A stretch of DNA of 64,000 nucleotides, from assembly GCA_965204575.1 (NCBI GenBank), contig OZ241993.1:480001-544000 (forward strand). Reading direction: 5' to 3'. The DNA comes from an uncultured candidatus Porisulfidus sp. GTDB taxonomy: Bacteria; Pseudomonadota; Gammaproteobacteria; Poriferisulfidales; Poriferisulfidaceae. Each line of letters begins with the position of its first letter. Position 1 is the first letter of the stretch. Shown here one piece after another: positions 15,655 to 43,115 of this stretch. The notes below the pieces were generated by a model. The model was not told the origin of the DNA. It was given only the letters and a program-made list of their open reading frames with translations, and ran no database searches. The translations under genes were made by a program, and so were the position numbers.

Positions 15655-17890
<2,236 letters not shown>

Positions 17891-17894
<4 letters not shown>

Positions 17895-19207
17895 TTCCGC
17901 AAACCGAATACGCACGGCGGCGCAAGAGGCTCATGCGCCGGATCGGACCGGATGCGGTGGCCTTGATCCCCGCGGCCCCGGCCCGGGTTCAAAGCCGCGA
18001 TGTCTACTGGCCGTACCGGCAGGACAGCGATTTTCTGTACCTGACCGGGTTCCCGGAGCCGGATGCCGTCGCGATGCTGCTTCCCGGACACCCGGGCGGC
18101 GAGTTCGTGATGTTCTGCAAGCCGCGCAATCCGGCCGTCGAGCAGTGGGAAGGCGCGCTTGCCGGTCTGGAGGGAGCCTGCGAGCGCTACGGGGCGGATG
18201 CGGCCTACCCCATCGAGAAGTTGAACGACATGGTCCTGACGCTGCTCCGGGAACGGCAGACCCTGTGCTACGCACTGGGACAGGACGGAGACTTCGACGG
18301 GCGGGTTGCCCGCTGGATCGACCAGATGCGTCTCCGCAGCCGGACCGGCCACAATCCTCCGGAGGAATGCCGCCTGCTCGACCGGGACCTGCACGAGATG
18401 CGCCTGTTCAAGAGCCGCAGCGAGATCGCACTGATGCGCAAGGCTTCCGCCATCGTGACCGGTGCCCACCGCCGCGCCATGGGCACGGCGAAACCGGGAT
18501 GCTACGAGTACGAACTGGAAGCCGAGCTGGTGTATGAAACCCAGCGCCACGACATGCGTTTCGCTTATTCCAGCATCGTGGCTTCGGGCCGCAATGCCTG
18601 CACGCTCCATTATTCCGAGAACTCCCGCCGAACCAAAGAAGGCGACCTGGTCTTGATCGACAGCGGGGGCATGCTGGCCGGTTATGCCAGCGACATCACC
18701 CGCACCTGGCCGGTGAGCGGCCAGTTCACGCCTGCGCAACGGGAAATTTACGAGCTGGTCCTGGAGGCGCAGCAGGCGGCCATCCGCCGGTGCGTTCCCG
18801 GCAACACCTGGGACGACCTCCACCGCGCGGCAACCCGCGTCCTGACCCGGGGCCTGGTGCATCTGGGGGTGCTGAAGGGACGATGGCAGACCCTGTGGAA
18901 AAAGGAGGCGTACAAACCCTATTTCATGCACGGGACTTCTCACTGGCTGGGCATGGACGTGCACGATGTCGGCGAATACCGCGTCAACGGGAAGTGGCGA
19001 GGGCTGGAACCCGGCATGGTCACCACGGTAGAACCTGGGCTCTACTTCACGCCGGGCCTCAAAGGGGTGCCGAAGCGATTTCGCGGCATCGGGGTGCGGA
19101 TCGAGGACGACGTGGCGGTCACCCGCAAGAGGCCGGACGTGCTCAGCGCGGGCCTGCCTTCCGATCCGGACGATATTTGTCGTCTCGTGGGGGCGGCGGC
19201 ACAGTGA
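17891..19207 (+). CDS. pepP: Xaa-Pro aminopeptidase
   Basis: YRQDSDFLYLTGF.EP, YASDITRT, HWLGMDVHD, TVEPGLY, GVRIEDD. Confidence 0.95.
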
Positions 19208-35948: not shown

Positions 35949-36931
35949 GCCGCTTCTGCCCAATGCCGAGCAGCGCGTATCTGCTCCGCTGCACAGTCAA
36001 CAGCCTCGAACAGGCTGCCGGGGTCTGCCTGCCCCGTTCCCGCAAGACCCAGAGCGGTGCCATGATCAACCGAAGTGCGCACGTACGGCAGCCCCAGGGT
36101 CACGTTCACGGCCTGTCCGAACCCGAGTGTCTTGAGCACCGGCAACCCTTGATCGTGGTACATGGCGAGAAACGCGTCGATCCCTTCCCGTTCGACGAAA
36201 GCGGTATCCGCCGAAACCGGACCTTCCACCTGATGGCCGCGTTCGCACAGTGCCTTGATGGCCGGAGCGATGACTTCCTGTTCTTCGCGACCGAAATATC
36301 CGCCTTCGCCGGCATGAGGGTTGAGCCCCAGCACGCGGATCTTTGGCTGGGCAAGGCCGAATCTCGACTGCAATCCGGAAACTAGGATTTCCAGGATGCC
36401 GACAAGGCGTTCCCGGGTCACCGCCTTCGGCACCTCGGCCAGCGGAAGATGCGTTGTTGCGAGCGCGACGCGCAGGGATTCCGCGGTCAACAGCATGACC
36501 GGTTCACTGTTCGCCTGCTCGGCCAGATACTCCGTGTGACCGCGAAACGGAAGGCCCGCAGCCAGCAAGGCGCTTTTTTGCACCGGCCCGGTCACCAGCG
36601 CATCGAATGTCCCGTCCAGGCAACCCTGCCCGGCTTCGGTGATGCTTTCCAGAACGTACGGGGCAAACCGCGCCTCGGCGACTCCCGGTCGGGCCTGGCC
36701 CTGCATCGGGATGGGGCGAACTTCCAGCGCATCCGGCGGTGGGGCAGCATCCGGGCGATACCCCACGATCTGAACCGCTTGCCCAAGTTCTTCGGCGCGC
36801 TGCCTGAGAAGATCCGGATCCGCGAATACGACGCAGCGCGCGGGGTTTTCTCTTTGCGCCAATGCCAGCAGCAGATCCGGTCCGATTCCACCGGGTTCGC
36901 CCGCGGTCACTGCCACGCGCAGTTCAGACAC
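35945..36931 (-). CDS. pdxA: 4-hydroxythreonine-4-phosphate dehydrogenase
   Basis: GEPGGIGPD, GHTEYLA, GLNPHAGE, AMYHDQGL, RTSVDHGTA. Confidence 0.96.
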   Translation of the reverse strand: MSELRVAVTAGEPGGIGPDLLLALAQRENPARCVVFADPDLLRQRAEELGQAVQIVGYRPDAAPPPDALEVRPIPMQGQARPGVAEARFAPYVLESITEAGQGCLDGTFDALVTGPVQKSALLAAGLPFRGHTEYLAEQANSEPVMLLTAESLRVALATTHLPLAEVPKAVTRERLVGILEILVSGLQSRFGLAQPKIRVLGLNPHAGEGGYFGREEQEVIAPAIKALCERGHQVEGPVSADTAFVEREGIDAFLAMYHDQGLPVLKTLGFGQAVNVTLGLPYVRTSVDHGTALGLAGTGQADPGSLFEAVDCAAEQIRAARHWAEAA

Positions 36932-38213
36932 CCTGTTCCTCGGTCATGTAGCGGACATAGGAATTGTTCAGCATCCGCCGCAACCAGATCTCGATCTCGT
37001 CGTTGACCCGCGAGCGGGCGAGATGGTTCAGCGCGCGTGTGCGCAGGGTCGATTCGGTCTCGTCCACCTTGCGGCGTTCCAGAACCTGAACGATATGCCA
37101 GCCGAATGAAGATTGGAACGGTTCGCTTATCTCATCGATTTCCAGCCGATTCATCTGTTCTTCGAAATAGGGGTCCAGCATTCCCGGCGAAGCCCACCCC
37201 AGGTTTCCTCCATCCGAAGCCGAAGCCGTATCGTCCGAATGTGAGCGGGCCAGGTCCTCAAAACGATCACCGCCATTGATTCGGTCCTTCAGCGTATTCA
37301 GCTGGGCAAGGGCCTCCCTATCATCAATGAGGGCATTGGGACGAATCAGGATGTGACGTGAGCGGGTCTGATTCACCATGACCTGTTCCCCGCCTTCCTT
37401 GTCCGCCAGATAGAACAAGTGAAAGCCACTGGGGCTTTGAAGCGGTTCCGTGACCCCTCCGATTTCCAGCTTGGTGATTGTGTCCGCGGCAAAACTAGGC
37501 AGTTCCGCTTCGACACGCCAGCCAATATCGCCCCCATTGAGGGCATTGCGGCCATCCGATTCGGTCAGGGCAAGACTGGCGAAGCTCTCCCCGCCGCGAA
37601 CCCGTTCGGCCAAGGCCTGTGCCTTAGCTCGGCGCCGATCTTTTTCCCTGGGAGCCATCTGCCCCTGCGTTGCGATCAGGATGTGATTCAGTTGGTACCG
37701 GTTGTCGGTCTGAAGACGGTCCGCATGCAACCGGAGAAAGTTGTCGATCTCGTCTTCAGTTACACGCACCAGGCGGCGAGACTCGATTTGCTGCAGATGC
37801 TGGGTTAGCAACTGCTCGTGAAGGTAATTGTAAAAGCTGATGAAGTGAATGCCTTCTTGCTCGATCTGGCGACGAAACTGTCGGGGGTCCATTCCGTTGC
37901 GTTCCGCCAGCGAACGGATTTCCTTCACTACCGCATCGGGGGGCAGGGAAATCCCGCGTTTCTCGGCAAACTGCATTTGCAGCCGGGCCATCACCATGTA
38001 TTCCAGAACCTGGGCGAAAAACTGCTCCTTCGGCGGCAGTGGCATCCCGCTTTGCAGGATCTGTTTCCCGATGATCGAAACGCGTTCTTCGAGCTCCGAC
38101 TGGGTGATGATGTCTTCCTCGACCACCGCCACGACCCGATCCAGAAGTTCAGCCGTCGCAACCCCGGACCCCAATGCCAGGATCAAAGCTGCACCGCGAA
38201 TCAACGTAACCAC
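36924..38213 (-). CDS. surA: Periplasmic chaperone/PPIase SurA
   Basis: LDRVVAVVEEDII, two parvulin domains (HILI, GG.LGW, FGWHI). Synteny with lptD and pdxA. Confidence 0.93.
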   Translation of the reverse strand: MVTLIRGAALILALGSGVATAELLDRVVAVVEEDIITQSELEERVSIIGKQILQSGMPLPPKEQFFAQVLEYMVMARLQMQFAEKRGISLPPDAVVKEIRSLAERNGMDPRQFRRQIEQEGIHFISFYNYLHEQLLTQHLQQIESRRLVRVTEDEIDNFLRLHADRLQTDNRYQLNHILIATQGQMAPREKDRRRAKAQALAERVRGGESFASLALTESDGRNALNGGDIGWRVEAELPSFAADTITKLEIGGVTEPLQSPSGFHLFYLADKEGGEQVMVNQTRSRHILIRPNALIDDREALAQLNTLKDRINGGDRFEDLARSHSDDTASASDGGNLGWASPGMLDPYFEEQMNRLEIDEISEPFQSSFGWHIVQVLERRKVDETESTLRTRALNHLARSRVNDEIEIWLRRMLNNSYVRYMTEEQGV

Positions 38214-40477
38214 GCCGACTCCCCGTCCATTTCCCGATGCATGCGGGTTTCGACGTCTTCGCCAACTCCAGCCAAGCCATGGAAACGAACATGGAGCAGC
38301 ACGCGATCATCGTACTCCCCGCCCGGCAACCCCGATTCTCGCCGCACCTTCCATGCGCCAATCCCGACCGTCATGCAGCACCCGCGGTGTTCCAAGGCAG
38401 TCAGCAATTCCAGGCTGCGGTCTTCATGAAAGTCATAGCGGTAGCGAAAAGCCAAGTGCCAGTTGTCACCCAGTGGCAGCAGCGCCTGTGCGTCCGCCTG
38501 TTCCAGTTCCGGCTCGCCCGGTACCCCCAATGCCGGGTTCCCGACGTACTCCACGTTTCCGGCCCGGTGGATGTAGCGAACCTGAACGCGTTCGTCGTCA
38601 TTGCCGTCCCAGCCGAGCATGTGAGAGGCCCAGGTGATGTCGTTGCCGTCGCGGTTCGGATCGTAGCGGAACGCGGACCGGACCTGGAGTTGCGGCGTCG
38701 GCCGCCATTCCATCTGCGCCGCCCAGGCGGACTTCGAGTCATCACCCTCGCCCCCCTTGATCAGGCCGCCTGGCGAGCGGAAATACCAGACCCGTCCAAT
38801 CTGTGCCCGCAACTTGAGATAGCCGGAGATCGGGTCGATCACCCGCGTCGTAAGCCCGGTCGCCACAAGGTCGGCACCGCCGATCCGGTCGCGCCCGGCA
38901 GCCCGGGCACCCCGGAACAGGGCGTCGTAGTCAAGTTCAAATCGCCGGGAGTCAAAGTCCGGGATGTCCGAATGGTCGCGGCGCTGGCGGTTGAGGTAGA
39001 AAAGTTGCGGCTCCAGAGTCTGCAGGGCGCCACTCTCCAGTTGGCGCTCGAAGCGCATCCGGGCATCGACACTGAAGATCGGCAGGGTCCGGCTTGGAGT
39101 CCCTTCCAGCTCTTCTCCCAATAGTGCTGCCGCTTTTTTCGCCTCGCCGGAGAAATCAAGATCGTACTGTGTGTGGCGCCACTGCAGGCGAGGCGTCACC
39201 TGCCAGCCAGTCCCGGCGAAGCGGCGTGCGACCGTCAGCCCCGCATCGTAGCGCTCGCCCTCGACGTGCAACGTGTCCAGGTCGCCTCGGAATACGTCCA
39301 CCGCCAGCATCGGCGACAAAACCAGGCCGGTCGACGGCATCTTATAAGAGCCTGCAGCGCGCACCTGAGGCAGTTGGTCCCACTGTTCACTGTGGCCTTT
39401 GAGCGGGTCGCTTCCGGTCACCGCGGCACTGACGGTCCAGTTATCGGAGCGCCAGGCCACGCGGGCCTCCTGACGCAACCGGGTCGTTGACAGATCGTGA
39501 ATCCCTGCCTTGAAATCCTCCAGGTAGGTCCCGTCGGACACGTTCGTGTAATTCACCTGGTAGTCCCATCCGCTCGGGCGAACCGCACTGTGCCGCCAGT
39601 GCAGCAGGTAGCGATCATCGTTCGCCTTGTTGTCGCTCAGAAACTCCGCCTTGGCCGTGCCGGCCCCATGATGCGTCCGGTAGCGACCACTGGGTTTGAT
39701 CTGGAGCCCCCGCCGACCCAGATACCGTGCCGACAGCACCGCATCGTAATGCGGGGCAAGGTTGAAGTAGTACGGCAGTTCCAGCGAATAGCCCAGATCG
39801 TCGGATGTCCCGATTTCCGGTGTCAGCCAGCCGCTCATGCGCTCCTCGCCGACCGGAAAACCCACCCAGGGCAGGTACATCACCGGCATGGAACCGACTC
39901 GAAGGACGATGTTGCGCGCCTCGCCCTGCCCCACATCCGGATCGATGCGGACAGATTTCGCCCGCACGTTCCAAGCCGGGTTTTCCAGACCACAAGTGGA
40001 ATAGCTGGCCTCTTCCGCCTCCAGCTTGCCATTCGGAGTCCATGTCATCTGCCGCATCTCGCCGGCCCCGCCGCCACCTAAACGAAAGCGGGCTTCGGGG
40101 ACCTTCGCCCGGCTCTCCCCATATTCCAGCTCCACCTGTTCGGCCTCCAGCGCAATTCCCGGCCCACTCATCCGGACCCCGCCGCTGAAGGAAATGCGTT
40201 CCTGTTCTTCGTCGATTGCCGCGGAATCCGAACTGGCGCGCAACGCGCCGTGGCGCACCCGGACATCCGAGCTTAATTCAACCCGGCCGTTTTCGCGTAC
40301 TATTTGCCCCGCCTCTAGTTCGAGTTCTCCGTCTCCGCCGGCTTCCGCGCCGATTTCGATTGGTCCGCAATGCGCCGGTTGCAATGGTTCCGGTAGTGGT
40401 AGGGAATCCTGGGCTCCGGCTCCTGCTACCCAAGCCCCCAAGGCCAAAGAAAGCAGGATGCGGTGGAAAATCAGCAT
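38201..40477 (-). CDS. lptD: LPS assembly protein LptD
   Basis: YSTC, PYYFNLAPHYD, QTLEPQLFY, C-terminal GCC. lptD-surA-pdxA order. Confidence 0.92.
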   Translation of the reverse strand: MLIFHRILLSLALGAWVAGAGAQDSLPLPEPLQPAHCGPIEIGAEAGGDGELELEAGQIVRENGRVELSSDVRVRHGALRASSDSAAIDEEQERISFSGGVRMSGPGIALEAEQVELEYGESRAKVPEARFRLGGGGAGEMRQMTWTPNGKLEAEEASYSTCGLENPAWNVRAKSVRIDPDVGQGEARNIVLRVGSMPVMYLPWVGFPVGEERMSGWLTPEIGTSDDLGYSLELPYYFNLAPHYDAVLSARYLGRRGLQIKPSGRYRTHHGAGTAKAEFLSDNKANDDRYLLHWRHSAVRPSGWDYQVNYTNVSDGTYLEDFKAGIHDLSTTRLRQEARVAWRSDNWTVSAAVTGSDPLKGHSEQWDQLPQVRAAGSYKMPSTGLVLSPMLAVDVFRGDLDTLHVEGERYDAGLTVARRFAGTGWQVTPRLQWRHTQYDLDFSGEAKKAAALLGEELEGTPSRTLPIFSVDARMRFERQLESGALQTLEPQLFYLNRQRRDHSDIPDFDSRRFELDYDALFRGARAAGRDRIGGADLVATGLTTRVIDPISGYLKLRAQIGRVWYFRSPGGLIKGGEGDDSKSAWAAQMEWRPTPQLQVRSAFRYDPNRDGNDITWASHMLGWDGNDDERVQVRYIHRAGNVEYVGNPALGVPGEPELEQADAQALLPLGDNWHLAFRYRYDFHEDRSLELLTALEHRGCCMTVGIGAWKVRRESGLPGGEYDDRVLLHVRFHGLAGVGEDVETRMHREMDGESAWLR

Positions 40478-40517
40478 AGAAACAACCTCGCGGCCCGACG
40501 CCGCAAGATAGTGTATT

Positions 40518-41807
40518 CTACTGTGGGAAAGATAAAGGAAAGTTGGCAGACAGGTCTCTACCTGATTTCCCTATTTCTTGACGCTTCACAGGCCGAGCAA
40601 CCCTCTCACGGGGTTGCCCGCCACCTCCACGTCCAGCCGCCCCATTCCCGAAGGCCAAGATGTTCAATGCGGCGTTTACATCCGCATCGTCCGTGTGCCC
40701 GCAAACGGTGCACTTGAATTCTGACTGCGAAGGACGATTCTCCTTCGACACATGCCCACATTGATGGCACGTCTGGCTAGTGTACGCCGGACGCACCTTG
40801 CGCACCTCCATCTTGTAGCTCAGGCAGTTCTCCAACACGCCCCAGCAGGAAACTAGGATCTTTCGATTCAGCCTGGATTTCGCTTTAACATGTTTACCTT
40901 GTTTCTCCGTCGTGCCTTTGGCCGATTTCGTCATGTCTTTGATGTTCAGATTCTCAATATAAGCGAGGTCGTACCGCGAGGCGATGCCTTTACTGGTGTG
41001 GTGCGCCCAGTTCAGACGGGCGAAACGTTCCGCTTGGTATGCCTTCTGCAACCGCACTTTCGTAATCTTCCGCCGATTGCTTCCTTTCATCTGACGGGTT
41101 ATTTTGCGCTGGTATCGCTTCCTCCGGGCGATCTTCTTCTCAATATCCGGGCCTGGGTGTTTGGTTCCATCAGAAAGAACCGCCCAACGGCCATCCGACA
41201 CATTGCGGTCAATCCCAACCTCCCTTATAGCGTGAGGAAGACTACCCTGTATGCTTACTTCGTAAGTCAGGTAGGCGTACCAGTTCCCGCACTCATGCCG
41301 GATTCGCCCGGACTTGAACTCGCCATGCGGATACGGGTTAGCTCCTGCAAGTTTCATCCACCCGATCTTTTGCACATACAGGCTGTCGCCGGAGATTCTC
41401 GCAGAGACATAATTGATCGGAAACGAAGGTCTGGTGGTATGCTTGCCATGGAATCGTGGAGGTTTCCGGTTGAGTTTGCCTCCTGCCTTCACATCGGCAA
41501 AGAACGCTTTGTAGGCCATCTCAATGGGCTGAAGGGAATTCTTGACGATATAAGCCGAATAACCCTGCAACCACTTGTAACTGTGTTGTCTAAGTATTGT
41601 GAAAGTTTTCCCTAGTCCCGGTGTCGGAACGGTTTTCGTGGACATAAAGTAGAAGTTGCATGATCCCCAAGCTTCATGTTCATCCCTGAGCTTCCCAACC
41701 ATGTGGTTCCAGACGAACCGACAGGCTCCAGCAGTGCCATGCAACTGCCGATGCTTTCGGCTTGAGCCAGGATACAGGCGATAGCGTACGATGCGGTGGG
41801 TTTTCAT
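40518..41807 (-). CDS. tnpB: IS200/IS605-family RNA-guided endonuclease TnpB
   Basis: YRLYP...GACRFVWN, RuvC triad GIDRN / IENL / DADVNAALNI, Zn finger CHQC...CTVC. The start at 41807 fits the promoter spacing. Confidence 0.93.
   Translation of the reverse strand: MKTHRIVRYRLYPGSSRKHRQLHGTAGACRFVWNHMVGKLRDEHEAWGSCNFYFMSTKTVPTPGLGKTFTILRQHSYKWLQGYSAYIVKNSLQPIEMAYKAFFADVKAGGKLNRKPPRFHGKHTTRPSFPINYVSARISGDSLYVQKIGWMKLAGANPYPHGEFKSGRIRHECGNWYAYLTYEVSIQGSLPHAIREVGIDRNVSDGRWAVLSDGTKHPGPDIEKKIARRKRYQRKITRQMKGSNRRKITKVRLQKAYQAERFARLNWAHHTSKGIASRYDLAYIENLNIKDMTKSAKGTTEKQGKHVKAKSRLNRKILVSCWGVLENCLSYKMEVRKVRPAYTSQTCHQCGHVSKENRPSQSEFKCTVCGHTDDADVNAALNILAFGNGAAGRGGGGQPRERVARPVKRQEIGKSGRDLSANFPLSFPQ
40558..40700 (-). 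ncRNA. Candidate omegaRNA/reRNA overlapping the tnpB 3' end
   Basis: Expected position for a TnpB guide RNA, with a stem-loop and a TCAA terminus. Boundaries are approximate. Confidence 0.45.
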
Positions 41808-41813
41808 CAGGCA

Positions 41814-41842
41814 ATTCTCCATCGGCGAAGACTGCCTGTCAA
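41814..41842 (-). promoter_or_regulatory. Sigma70 promoter of tnpB (probably leaderless)
   Basis: TTGACA-17 nt-GAGAAT-6 nt-ATG on the minus strand. Confidence 0.65.
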
Positions 41843-41891
41843 CTTTCCTTTATAGTTTTCTCTAATATTTCTCTTTTAGACCGACCTTATC

Positions 41892-43115
41892 ATGCCTCCC
41901 CCCGCACCCTCCAACAACTCACACGGCAGGTTGCGCCGGTTTTTCCCATCGAGGCGGCAAGGGCTCTGGTCGATCGGCGTCCTCGGCCTGTTCGGCTTCG
42001 CGGCCTATGCTTTGGTTGCCACCGCGCCGCAGCCGGAAGCAGTCCTGACCGACCTGCCAAGTCTCACGGTAGAAACGTACACGGTGGTGCGGAAGGATAT
42101 CGCACCGCATGCCACCTTCACGGGCCGCCTGCAGCCGCGCCGCAGCGCGGCATTGCGCTTCGAGGTTTCCGGCCAGTTGCTGCATCGTGCGGCTGAACCC
42201 GGGATGACCGTTTCCGCCGGCGACACGCTACTGGTTCTCGACGACCGGGACTTCAAGGATCGGGTACGCACCGCCGAAGCGGAATTGCGCCTGGAGGAAA
42301 GCGGCATCGAGCGGGACCGGGTCCAGCTGGAACAGGCGACCCGGCATCGCGAACTGCAGCGCGAAGAAGTTGCGCGTCACACGCGGTTGGGCGAGCGTTC
42401 GCTGCTCTCGCAGTCTTCACTCAACGCCGCCGAGCAGAAACTCACCGAACTGGAATCGCGGGTGGCCGAACTGACGCATTCGGTCGAGACGGGCGAACAG
42501 CGCCTCGCGTTGAAACAGGCGAAATTCGACCAAGCCCGCCGGGATCTTGCCCGAACCCGGCTGACCGCACCCTTCGACGGACGCGTCAACACCGTGCTCG
42601 CCGAAGTCGGCGACCGCATCACCGGCGACCAGACGGTGGCTTCCGTGGTCGATGTGACGGAACTGGACTTCTACGTGGAAGTCGACGGCGCCACCGCCCT
42701 TGCGCTGGAACTCAACCAGGAAGTCACGGTGAAAACCGGAGAGGAAGAGCGCCCCGGCATTTTGGTCGCCCTGCAGACCGATCCGGACCCGCGCACTTTC
42801 ACGCATGCGGTTCGCATCCGGATCCCCGGCGACCGTGCCGCGCCGGGGCAGTTGGCCGTTGCCCGGCTGCCCCTGCCGATCATCAGGAACGCGCTGGTGG
42901 TGCCCGTGGAGGCCCTGCGAGTGGATGCGGCCGGCCAAGCCGTGTTCCGTATCGAGGGGCAGTCGCTGCAGCGCATCGCGGTCACGCCCGGACCCCGCGT
43001 CGGCCCCTGGCAGGTGATCGAGTCGGAATTGGAGGAAGGAGACCAGATCGTCGCCCGTGACGCCGCGGCCATGGATGTCCGTCGTCCCATCCGCGTGCGT
43101 GAACGGACGCCATGA
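41892..43115 (+). CDS. RND efflux periplasmic adaptor (MFP)
   Basis: N-terminal TM, FEVSG, lipoyl halves (GMTVSAGD, APFDGRV...EVGD), coiled coil. Confidence 0.9.
   Translation: MPPPAPSNNSHGRLRRFFPSRRQGLWSIGVLGLFGFAAYALVATAPQPEAVLTDLPSLTVETYTVVRKDIAPHATFTGRLQPRRSAALRFEVSGQLLHRAAEPGMTVSAGDTLLVLDDRDFKDRVRTAEAELRLEESGIERDRVQLEQATRHRELQREEVARHTRLGERSLLSQSSLNAAEQKLTELESRVAELTHSVETGEQRLALKQAKFDQARRDLARTRLTAPFDGRVNTVLAEVGDRITGDQTVASVVDVTELDFYVEVDGATALALELNQEVTVKTGEEERPGILVALQTDPDPRTFTHAVRIRIPGDRAAPGQLAVARLPLPIIRNALVVPVEALRVDAAGQAVFRIEGQSLQRIAVTPGPRVGPWQVIESELEEGDQIVARDAAAMDVRRPIRVRERTP

Follow-up and report, generated by a model that had tools for sequence, protein, structure and literature searches.

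Six branches of prokaryotic TnpB (DDE-1 to DDE-6) have been described as DDE-associated and as possessing symmetrical inverted terminal repeats (PMC10691335). Solo TnpBs are also reported in the text of that study, flanked by ends that barely differ from those of elements with a transposase, so that mobilisation in trans is implied (PMC10691335). Regarding the DDE-linked shells concerned, the main text names IS630 (PMC10691335), with ISL2 and IS1031 added in a review from 2026 (PMC13565253). Neither IS1595 nor ISL3 is mentioned in the main text of PMC10691335, the supplements of which may list them. Furthermore, no publication on an IS1595 or ISL3 shell for TnpB was found in literature searches, in which the combination of IS1595 and TnpB was judged by title and abstract. 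Elements of the IS1595 family of ISfinder reportedly have terminal inverted repeats (TIRs) that start with GG(G), form target duplications of 8 bp and frequently carry passenger genes.

The IS1341 group is described in the sections consulted of two sources as having no TIRs and no target duplication, as relying on a Y1 transposase and as inserting beside a motif of 4-5 nt (PMC13565253, PMC4810608).

The inserted element, its gene and its boundaries

The locus examined here lies in a window of 64,000 nucleotides (the whole stretch of DNA that was analysed), belonging to a genome that consists of a 1.82-Mb single contig and is 98.75% complete. According to Pfam, it is situated between lptD and an HlyD/AcrB efflux pair. 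The features are as follows, in window coordinates, with element ends named in the orientation of tnpB and the target duplications by coordinate:

40525 to 41860, reverse strand: inserted element of 1,336 bp with tnpB as its sole gene, delimited by empty sites and TIR alignment
40518 to 41822, reverse strand: tnpB ORF (from the ORF list) of 434 amino acids from the ATG at 41822, or of 429 from the ATG at 41807
41814 to 41842, reverse strand: promoter-like TTGACA-17-GAGAAT reading into tnpB, a consensus match only (10/12)
40525 to 40553, reverse strand: right-end TIR of 29 nt, enclosing 40532-40553, its inward terminus reading GGGAAAG...
41832 to 41860, reverse strand: left-end TIR of 29 nt, enclosing 41832-41853 and the TTGACA (repeat finder and TIR alignment)
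40517 to 40524, no strand assigned: left target duplication, TCTACTGT, present as a single copy in empty sites
41861 to 41868, no strand assigned: right target duplication, TCTAATAT, the same as the left copy at 6/8 positions in the window sequence

TnpB was the sole ORF family identified within 40525-41860, with the stop codon of the gene situated in the flank, just beyond the end of the element. The database form of the protein begins at Met6 and thus has 429 amino acids. Three TnpB domains were identified with Pfam, namely HTH_OrfB_IS605 (5.9e-7), OrfB_IS605 (2.9e-9) and Cas12f1-like_TNB (1.8e-18), and TnpB chains of the PDB were found to match the protein at an E-value of 8e-26. The D, E and D residues of the RuvC domain are intact, as the segments GIDRN, IENLN and DDADVNAALN align with GVDLG, VEDLN and DRDENAALN of ISDra2-like chains. 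Judged by its sequence, this is an intact gene in which the catalytic residues have been kept, as a preliminary description of the locus had already proposed.

That description had also placed the TTGACA of the tnpB promoter in the upstream copy of an inverted repeat, and a promoter scan returned the same placement (41842-41837), the hit being a consensus match only. Transcription from this putative promoter would start at approximately the ATG at 41807, and the transcript is possibly leaderless. An equivalent promoter spacing was seen in the alignment of other copies of the element. A TIR that holds the -35 box of an inward promoter is common among insertion sequences, and the left TIR would here double as the carrier of this box.

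The inverted repeat itself, described previously as 22 bp long, was recovered with a repeat finder as arms at 40532-40553 and 41832-41853 (22 nt, 91% complementary, 20/22), ranking top among 23 inverted pairs found in 40300-42100. When 40478-40640 was compared with 41790-41891, the top ungapped inverted match scored 17, a value reached by none of 1000 mononucleotide shuffles (mean 7.0, maximum 13).

Sister genomes of the genus have no element between lptD and the efflux gene, which are adjacent there (L014-L022). The inverted repeat was absent from all nine of these lptD-efflux junctions, and no hairpin occurs there, which answers the question raised earlier of whether the repeat pre-exists as a host hairpin. 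At four of the nine empty sites the left junction, ...TATTCTACTGT, matches the window exactly through base 40524, so the insert starts at 40525 and the repeat belongs to it rather than to the host. This left boundary was set by comparison of the empty sites with BLAST, while the position of the terminus at 41860 follows from an alignment of the TIR to that of the closest subtype (L034). The 22-bp repeat is the inner part of the 29-nt TIRs.

These boundaries revise two points of the preliminary description. The TCAA at 40578, which had been taken as the right end, is internal, the actual end being at 40525, so that the downstream repeat copy, which had been placed beyond the right end, is the terminus itself; and a target duplication, thought not to be clearly present, exists in decayed form (TCTACTGT/TCTAATAT, 6/8). 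The bases past the right duplication copy (TTCTCTTTTAGACCGACC) align with those past TCTACTGT in one of the empty sites (L014). As the TIRs of the window element (identical at 23/29 positions) and its duplication have decayed, its assignment rests on its relatives.

Relatives of the element and transposases with the same ends

Sixteen TnpB matches at E<=1e-30 were found in the genome containing the window, where the element has six further near-full-length tnpB paralogues (71-73% nucleotide identity) in addition to fragments. TIRs of the GGGAAYTAT type, approximately 26-30 nt long, are present on all seven near-full-length paralogues and on most of 20 further copies from sister genomes; a check of other tnpB copies for the inverted repeat had been proposed as one that could refute the capture of tnpB by a TIR-type element, and it did not do so. 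Among 26 elements of the genus, an automated test identified 8-bp duplications matching at 8/8 positions in six and at 7/8 in seven. In a mismatched control, where the left flank of one element was paired with the right flank of another, at least 7/8 positions agreed in 9/650 pairs, versus 13/26 for the real pairs; the script mis-located some low-scoring ends, that of the window copy included. A search for relatives with the single protein returned four loci, three of them from the same genus, the wider relatives having been obtained from genome searches. TnpB homologues with 43-63% identity and the same architecture were found in three other genera, which belong to another family within the order, and duplications of at least 7/8 were present in 27 of the 47 elements from the genus and these other genera.

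The inner part of the TIR varies strongly between subfamilies, yet both ends of any one copy agree. The ends of copy c3, for example, are identical at 28/29 positions, while those of c3 and c6 differ from each other at many. The same TIRs were also found on small cassettes that have no tnpB, such as that at 16578-17142, which has a perfect duplication. A search for MITEs using an 11-nt core of the window TIR, allowing at most one mismatch, gave 20 matches, the real ones among them being tnpB copies only.

A search of 16 genomes of the genus for the 20-nt terminus of one TIR subtype yielded three perfect pairs with spacings of 2.5-3.1 kb, and each pair (in G002, G005 and G012) encloses a protein of 307 amino acids. 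The one of these three proteins that was scanned against Pfam (L093) possesses DDE_Tnp_IS1595 (E 8e-44) and Zn_ribbon_IS1595 domains, and a search with PF12762 detected the DDE domain in all three. The 20-nt terminal pattern is identical between tnpB elements and the three transposase-bearing elements. Cargo of the IS1595 elements consists of DNA methyltransferases, one of them with an HNH domain, or of small ORFs.

PF12762 was found in 13/15 relatives, with the genome of the window having fragments only. Clear TIRs, of the same class as the right-end TIR of the window element, were identified at six of 18 IS1595 loci (L095, L099, L101, L109, L111 and L118), five of which (all but L099) have perfect 8-bp duplications; at the remaining 12, two of which are cut by the locus edge (L097, L098), the automated search identified no clear TIR spanning the transposase. 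One IS1595 TIR subtype is identical to that of the c4-type tnpB elements, while the TIR of L099 (in G015) resembles the subtype of the window element and L034, that of L101 resembles the L044 subtype, and those of L111 and L118 resemble the subtype of L039, c2 and c3. A decayed IS1595 element with a TIR of the general subtype of the window element was identified at approximately 1081541-1084090 of the window's own genome. No intact IS1595 transposase with the exact TIR subtype of the window element was found in the genomes searched, the nearest being L099 and this pseudogene, and a transposase and tnpB were never seen together within one element.

Searches for other types of transposase in the genome were also performed. 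The Y1 transposase domain (PF01797) gave no matches in the genome, a control search with it being positive in 6/14 reference genomes, and PF00239, for serine transposases and recombinases, likewise gave none; the earlier statement that no tnpA is present thus holds for the genome as a whole. A conserved gene of 405-441 amino acids with a weak match to PF01610 was considered as a transposase and set aside, since by inspection its ORF resembles a membrane desaturase and has histidine boxes. ISL3 was also rejected as the mobiliser, as the TIRs of the ISL3 element of the genome are unrelated to those of the window element and match a different tnpB family.

A second tnpB family in the same genome sits between ISL3-type ends.

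The window element is very probably a non-autonomous element of IS1595 type that carries tnpB as a passenger and has no transposase of its own, with the two copies of the repeat being its TIRs. As it contains no transposase gene, it is a derivative, non-autonomous cassette and not a member of IS1595 proper. It would have inserted by a DDE-type reaction with duplication of 8 bp of the target, and it is presumably moved in trans by a transposase of the IS1595 family. Because the only IS1595 transposase gene of the genome has decayed, the element is probably stranded there. Of the three options put forward in the preliminary description, the capture of tnpB by a TIR-type non-autonomous element is the one supported, by the IS1595-type ends, the 8-bp duplications and the transposase-bearing partners, while RNA-guided autorepression and an invertible cassette are left unsupported.

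The agreement of the two ends within a copy could be taken to mean that both match a single RNA, with TnpB and its guide RNA recognising or joining them in a form of RNA-guided transposition that needs no DDE transposase. The covariation of the ends between subfamilies is in line with this, as are the 16 TnpB matches in a genome that has no intact transposase gene for the TIR family of the element. Further support comes from G009, in which six near-identical tnpB copies with perfect duplications were found; this complete genome has a single PF12762 match, without a TIR matching that of the six copies, which indicates that a resident cognate transposase is not always visible. A base-pairing reading of the covariation is dispensable, however, as each TIR subtype is shared by IS1595 elements: the two ends have co-evolved with distinct lineages of IS1595 transposase, and RNA is not needed to account for their varying together. 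The TIRs also occur on the cassettes that have no tnpB, duplications of 8 bp are likewise those of IS1595 elements, and no TnpB is known to join DNA. Transposition guided by RNA is hence very unlikely.

The right end, the putative guide RNA and the flanks

Four further features concern the right end and the flanks of the element, named here in tnpB orientation:

40525 to 40760, reverse strand: putative omegaRNA scaffold, overlapping the 3' end of tnpB (alignment A1, 20 copies)
40525 to 40584, reverse strand: predicted terminal hairpin, with the inner TIR as 3' arm and an upstream segment as 5' arm (-16.3 kcal/mol, z -2.27)
40505 to 40524, reverse strand: putative guide, the 20 nt of flank that adjoin the right end, with the duplication first (conservation stop and analogy to the reRNA of Fanzor)
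41869, reverse strand: flank base directly preceding the left duplication, an A in the orientation of tnpB, candidate minimal TAM (purine at 26/26 sites)

The last approximately 235 nt of the element are conserved as nucleotides up to its final base, beyond which the copies diverge. As conservation reaches the last base, a locus-specific guide must start outside the element, and by analogy the guide would be the first 20 nt beyond the right end, beginning in the flank at the duplication. The consensus fold of the putative scaffold comprises 48 mostly invariant pairs, with compensatory change in three of them, two of which belong to the terminal hairpin. When right ends that differ from one another in TIR subtype were folded singly, the same hairpin architecture was found at 8/8 (z-scores -2.3, -2.1, 0.1, -3.7, -2.9, -4.8, -4.2 and -1.9). 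An Rfam search in E-value mode gave no matches in 40300-42000.

The TIR being dictated by the transposase, the upstream arm of the hairpin must have followed its changes, which argues for a selected stem. Such a stem would most simply be the last one of the guide-RNA scaffold, the right TIR having been recruited as its final hairpin. A terminal stem of the guide-RNA scaffold has likewise been predicted, in the text available, for Fanzors in TIR transposons (PMC10711439). The scaffold would then reach the end of the element, with the guide itself in the flank, and TnpB is presumably active.

A signature was also identified in the flanks. Twenty-six unique sites have good duplications, and in tnpB orientation the nucleotide immediately 5' to the left duplication is a purine at 26/26 of them, the first duplicated base being G at 0/26. 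The mirrored position on the right side is unbiased (pyrimidine at 10/26). Whereas a symmetric preference of a DDE transposase should appear on both sides, this signal is specific to one orientation and is possibly a minimal TAM, although it is offered as a lead only. At the occupied right junction, the C of the TIR terminus takes up the corresponding position. In the ISL3-type tnpB family, G was found at the same position at 4/4 sites.

Run X4 contains a second strain with the same insertion, for which 40 differences are listed on 40628-42500. Nine of these lie in the element (~0.8%) versus 31 in 41892-42398 (~4.8%), the divergence of the element being approximately five-fold lower. In the left piece (39900-40648), 64/749 positions differ. 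Recombination, homing or selection are each possible causes of this gradient. A tentative and rather doubtful reading is that TnpB in DDE shells keeps the homing or retention logic of IS605 elements, with a minimal TAM and a guide that begins at the duplication, the contrast in X4 then being due to homing. If so, a purine would be required at the single base 5' of the duplication on the left side, and the invariant CCC of the TIR terminus would put a pyrimidine at that position on the occupied allele, so that the element would be spared while empty alleles are cut. The low divergence of the element in X4 would in that case reflect its homing between lineages.

The properties of the right end also bear on the autorepression put forward in the preliminary description, according to which the right-end repeat, as part of the guide RNA, would act as a mismatched guide by which TnpB represses its own promoter at the left repeat. 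Transcription of the right-end TIR would indeed follow from a guide RNA that extends to the end of the element, and with 20/22 complementarity to the strand opposite the -35 region some binding is conceivable. However, the role of the repeat as a TIR explains it fully, as IS1595 elements and the cassettes without tnpB, which are bracketed by it also, share these TIRs. The inner TIR is held in a conserved hairpin, which speaks against its being a free guide; pairing that is kept by compensatory change and recurs at 8/8 ends is the behaviour of a scaffold. An intact RuvC triad would, moreover, cut rather than repress. Autorepression through the repeat is highly improbable on these grounds.

It is extremely unlikely that this is an ordinary IS200/IS605 element of the IS1341 group, its repeat reflecting similar subterminal hairpins for a Y1 TnpA. 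TnpB is the hallmark protein of that family, the right end does hold a hairpin, and identical palindromes are described as possible at IS605-type ends in the part of the source covering them (PMC3119063). The inverted match, however, extends exactly to the ends of the insert, taking in the terminal 12 nt, which are part of no palindrome, and duplications of 8 bp are present, which by the two accounts consulted the family does not make (PMC13565253, PMC4810608). The genome has no Y1 transposase, and identical ends belong to elements with an IS1595 transposase.

The inverted repeats do flank a promoter-bearing segment between two divergent operons, as the suggested invertible cassette switching the lptD and efflux promoters would require, but this possibility is negligible given that no invertase was found near the element, that the same repeats occur with target duplications at more than 25 unrelated sites, and that the contigs of four runs (X1, X3, X4 and X5; contigs can miss rare forms) have a single orientation, with neither an inversion joint nor an empty-site joint seen.

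Comparison with known systems

The element, as a non-autonomous IS1595-type cassette with a tnpB passenger, can be compared with four described systems. Its resemblance to the IS1341 group lies in the single tnpB of similar size and in the putative guide-RNA scaffold at the 3' end; unlike that group, it has 29-nt TIRs at its exact termini, its family has 8-bp duplications, and its genome has no Y1 transposase. The label 'IS200/IS605 family TnpB' used in annotation can thus mask elements of different transposition chemistry.

With the IS1595 family, the window family shares the start of the TIRs, the 8-bp duplication and the carriage of passengers (DNA methyltransferases, small ORFs and tnpB). 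Unlike autonomous members, the window element has no transposase gene.

Fanzor1 and Fanzor2* of TIR/TSD transposons are, in the portions consulted of their description (Yoon et al. 2023, NAR, PMC10711439), similar in that a non-autonomous cut-and-paste element carries an RNA-guided nuclease of the TnpB family as its only cargo. Those systems are eukaryotic and viral (PMC10711439), whereas the present host is a bacterium, the TnpB is compact at approximately 430 amino acids and the shell is of IS1595 type. The element bears on the origin of Fanzor-like arrangements, and on whether TnpB benefits transposons that excise by double-strand breaks. The presence of another tnpB family within ISL3-type ends indicates that DDE shells have captured tnpB more than once.

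Closest are the DDE-associated TnpBs (Altae-Tran et al. 2023, PNAS, PMC10691335), with which, as far as the main text describes them, the window family has in common the inverted terminal repeats, the position of the 3' end of tnpB at most 250 bp from the end of the element, and ends shared with transposase-bearing elements. It differs from those described there (PMC10691335) in that a transposase and tnpB were never seen together in one element. The window element is a new instance of an arrangement that has already been reported and is rare in bacteria (Altae-Tran 2023), and it provides a clean bacterial case of tnpB as the cargo of DDE cut-and-paste transposition, an arrangement regarded as rare in prokaryotes. 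Its boundaries are defined, and it comes with empty sites, cognate partners that bear a transposase, several co-evolved TIR subtypes and a flank signature that constitutes a testable candidate for a minimal TAM.

The window insertion in a second strain and the tnpB leader

Comparison of the contigs of sequencing run X4 with positions 39900-42500 of the window identified a second strain carrying the same insertion as the window element, a non-autonomous IS1595-type insertion with tnpB as its sole gene. Between the X4 strain and the window, approximately 0.8% of positions differ within the element, 4.8% in the right flank and 8.5% in the left piece, with one additional T present after 41550 in the X4 strain. 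At window 41807-41842, and likewise at the corresponding left end in the other copies, the tnpB -10-like hexamer ends approximately 7 nt upstream of the ATG, and no purine-rich ribosome-binding site was seen there in the alignment. Due to this short spacing and the absence of such a site, the tnpB mRNA of the window element and the other copies may be leaderless.

tnpB and other cargo between IS1595-type and similar ends

The following features were identified on the single contig of the genome holding the window (G000:C1; whole-contig coordinates).

435815-436996: tnpB paralogue c4
1618289-1619468: tnpB paralogue c6
226531-227948, 266610-268029, 362139-363482: third tnpB family, three copies
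16578-17142: small IS1595-type cassette lacking tnpB
~17985-18775: small IS1595-type cassette lacking tnpB
395874: solo IS1595-type terminal inverted repeat (TIR)

Paralogues c4 and c6 share 97% identity over 1,182 bp as well as a common frameshift, yet differ in TIR subtype and 5' leader despite their near-identical bodies. On sequence grounds, body and ends have changed independently of one another, through either homogenisation of the bodies or exchange of the ends. In the third tnpB family (~43% amino acid identity, 458 aa), the ends are similar to the c4 subtype of IS1595-type TIR (...ATAATCCGCAA...).

The same IS1595-type TIRs as those of the window element bracket the small cassettes without tnpB. 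The cassette at 16578-17142 is 565 bp in length, has a perfect duplication (AAAATCGC) and contains two small ORFs (86 aa and 66 aa), for which a Pfam search returned no match. Furthermore, N6/N4 DNA methyltransferase genes were found as passengers of autonomous IS1595 elements in the genus (L091 of genome G002, L092 of G005 and L099 of G015, the latter methyltransferase being assigned from motifs alone), with one of these enzymes fused to an HNH domain.

In the related genome G009, a tnpB element (L129-L132) is present as six near-identical copies with 43% amino acid identity to the window tnpB, with perfect duplications in all three copies examined in detail. The only IS1595 locus of G009 (L103) shows no TIR matching these copies.

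tnpB between ISL3-type ends

A second tnpB family in G000 (~37% amino acid identity, 470 aa) is flanked by ISL3-type TIRs. Its copies, all outside the window, those of the resident ISL3-family insertion sequence and a gene with a weak ISL3 match are located on G000:C1 as follows.

105881-107336, 163656-165115, 410088-411537, 1158419-1159876, 1453210-1454678, 1468268-1469734: second tnpB family, six copies
36846-38195, 236196-237543, 396974-398323: ISL3-family insertion sequence, three copies
793189-793509: L089, weak PF01610 (ISL3) match

L089 is a conserved single-copy gene of nearly all genomes of the genus, and its ORF resembles that of a membrane fatty-acid desaturase, with histidine boxes and an additional C-terminal extension.

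Eight-bp duplications are perfect in two of the six second-family copies and match at 7/8 positions in two more; in all four, a G lies immediately 5' of the left duplication. A literature search turned up no publication that connects TnpB to ISL3 ends. The three copies of the insertion sequence, encoding a transposase of 446 aa, are 100% identical and each has a perfect 8-bp duplication; from its sequence, this element has evidently been active recently. Its TIRs match those of the second tnpB family, for example at 22/24 positions.
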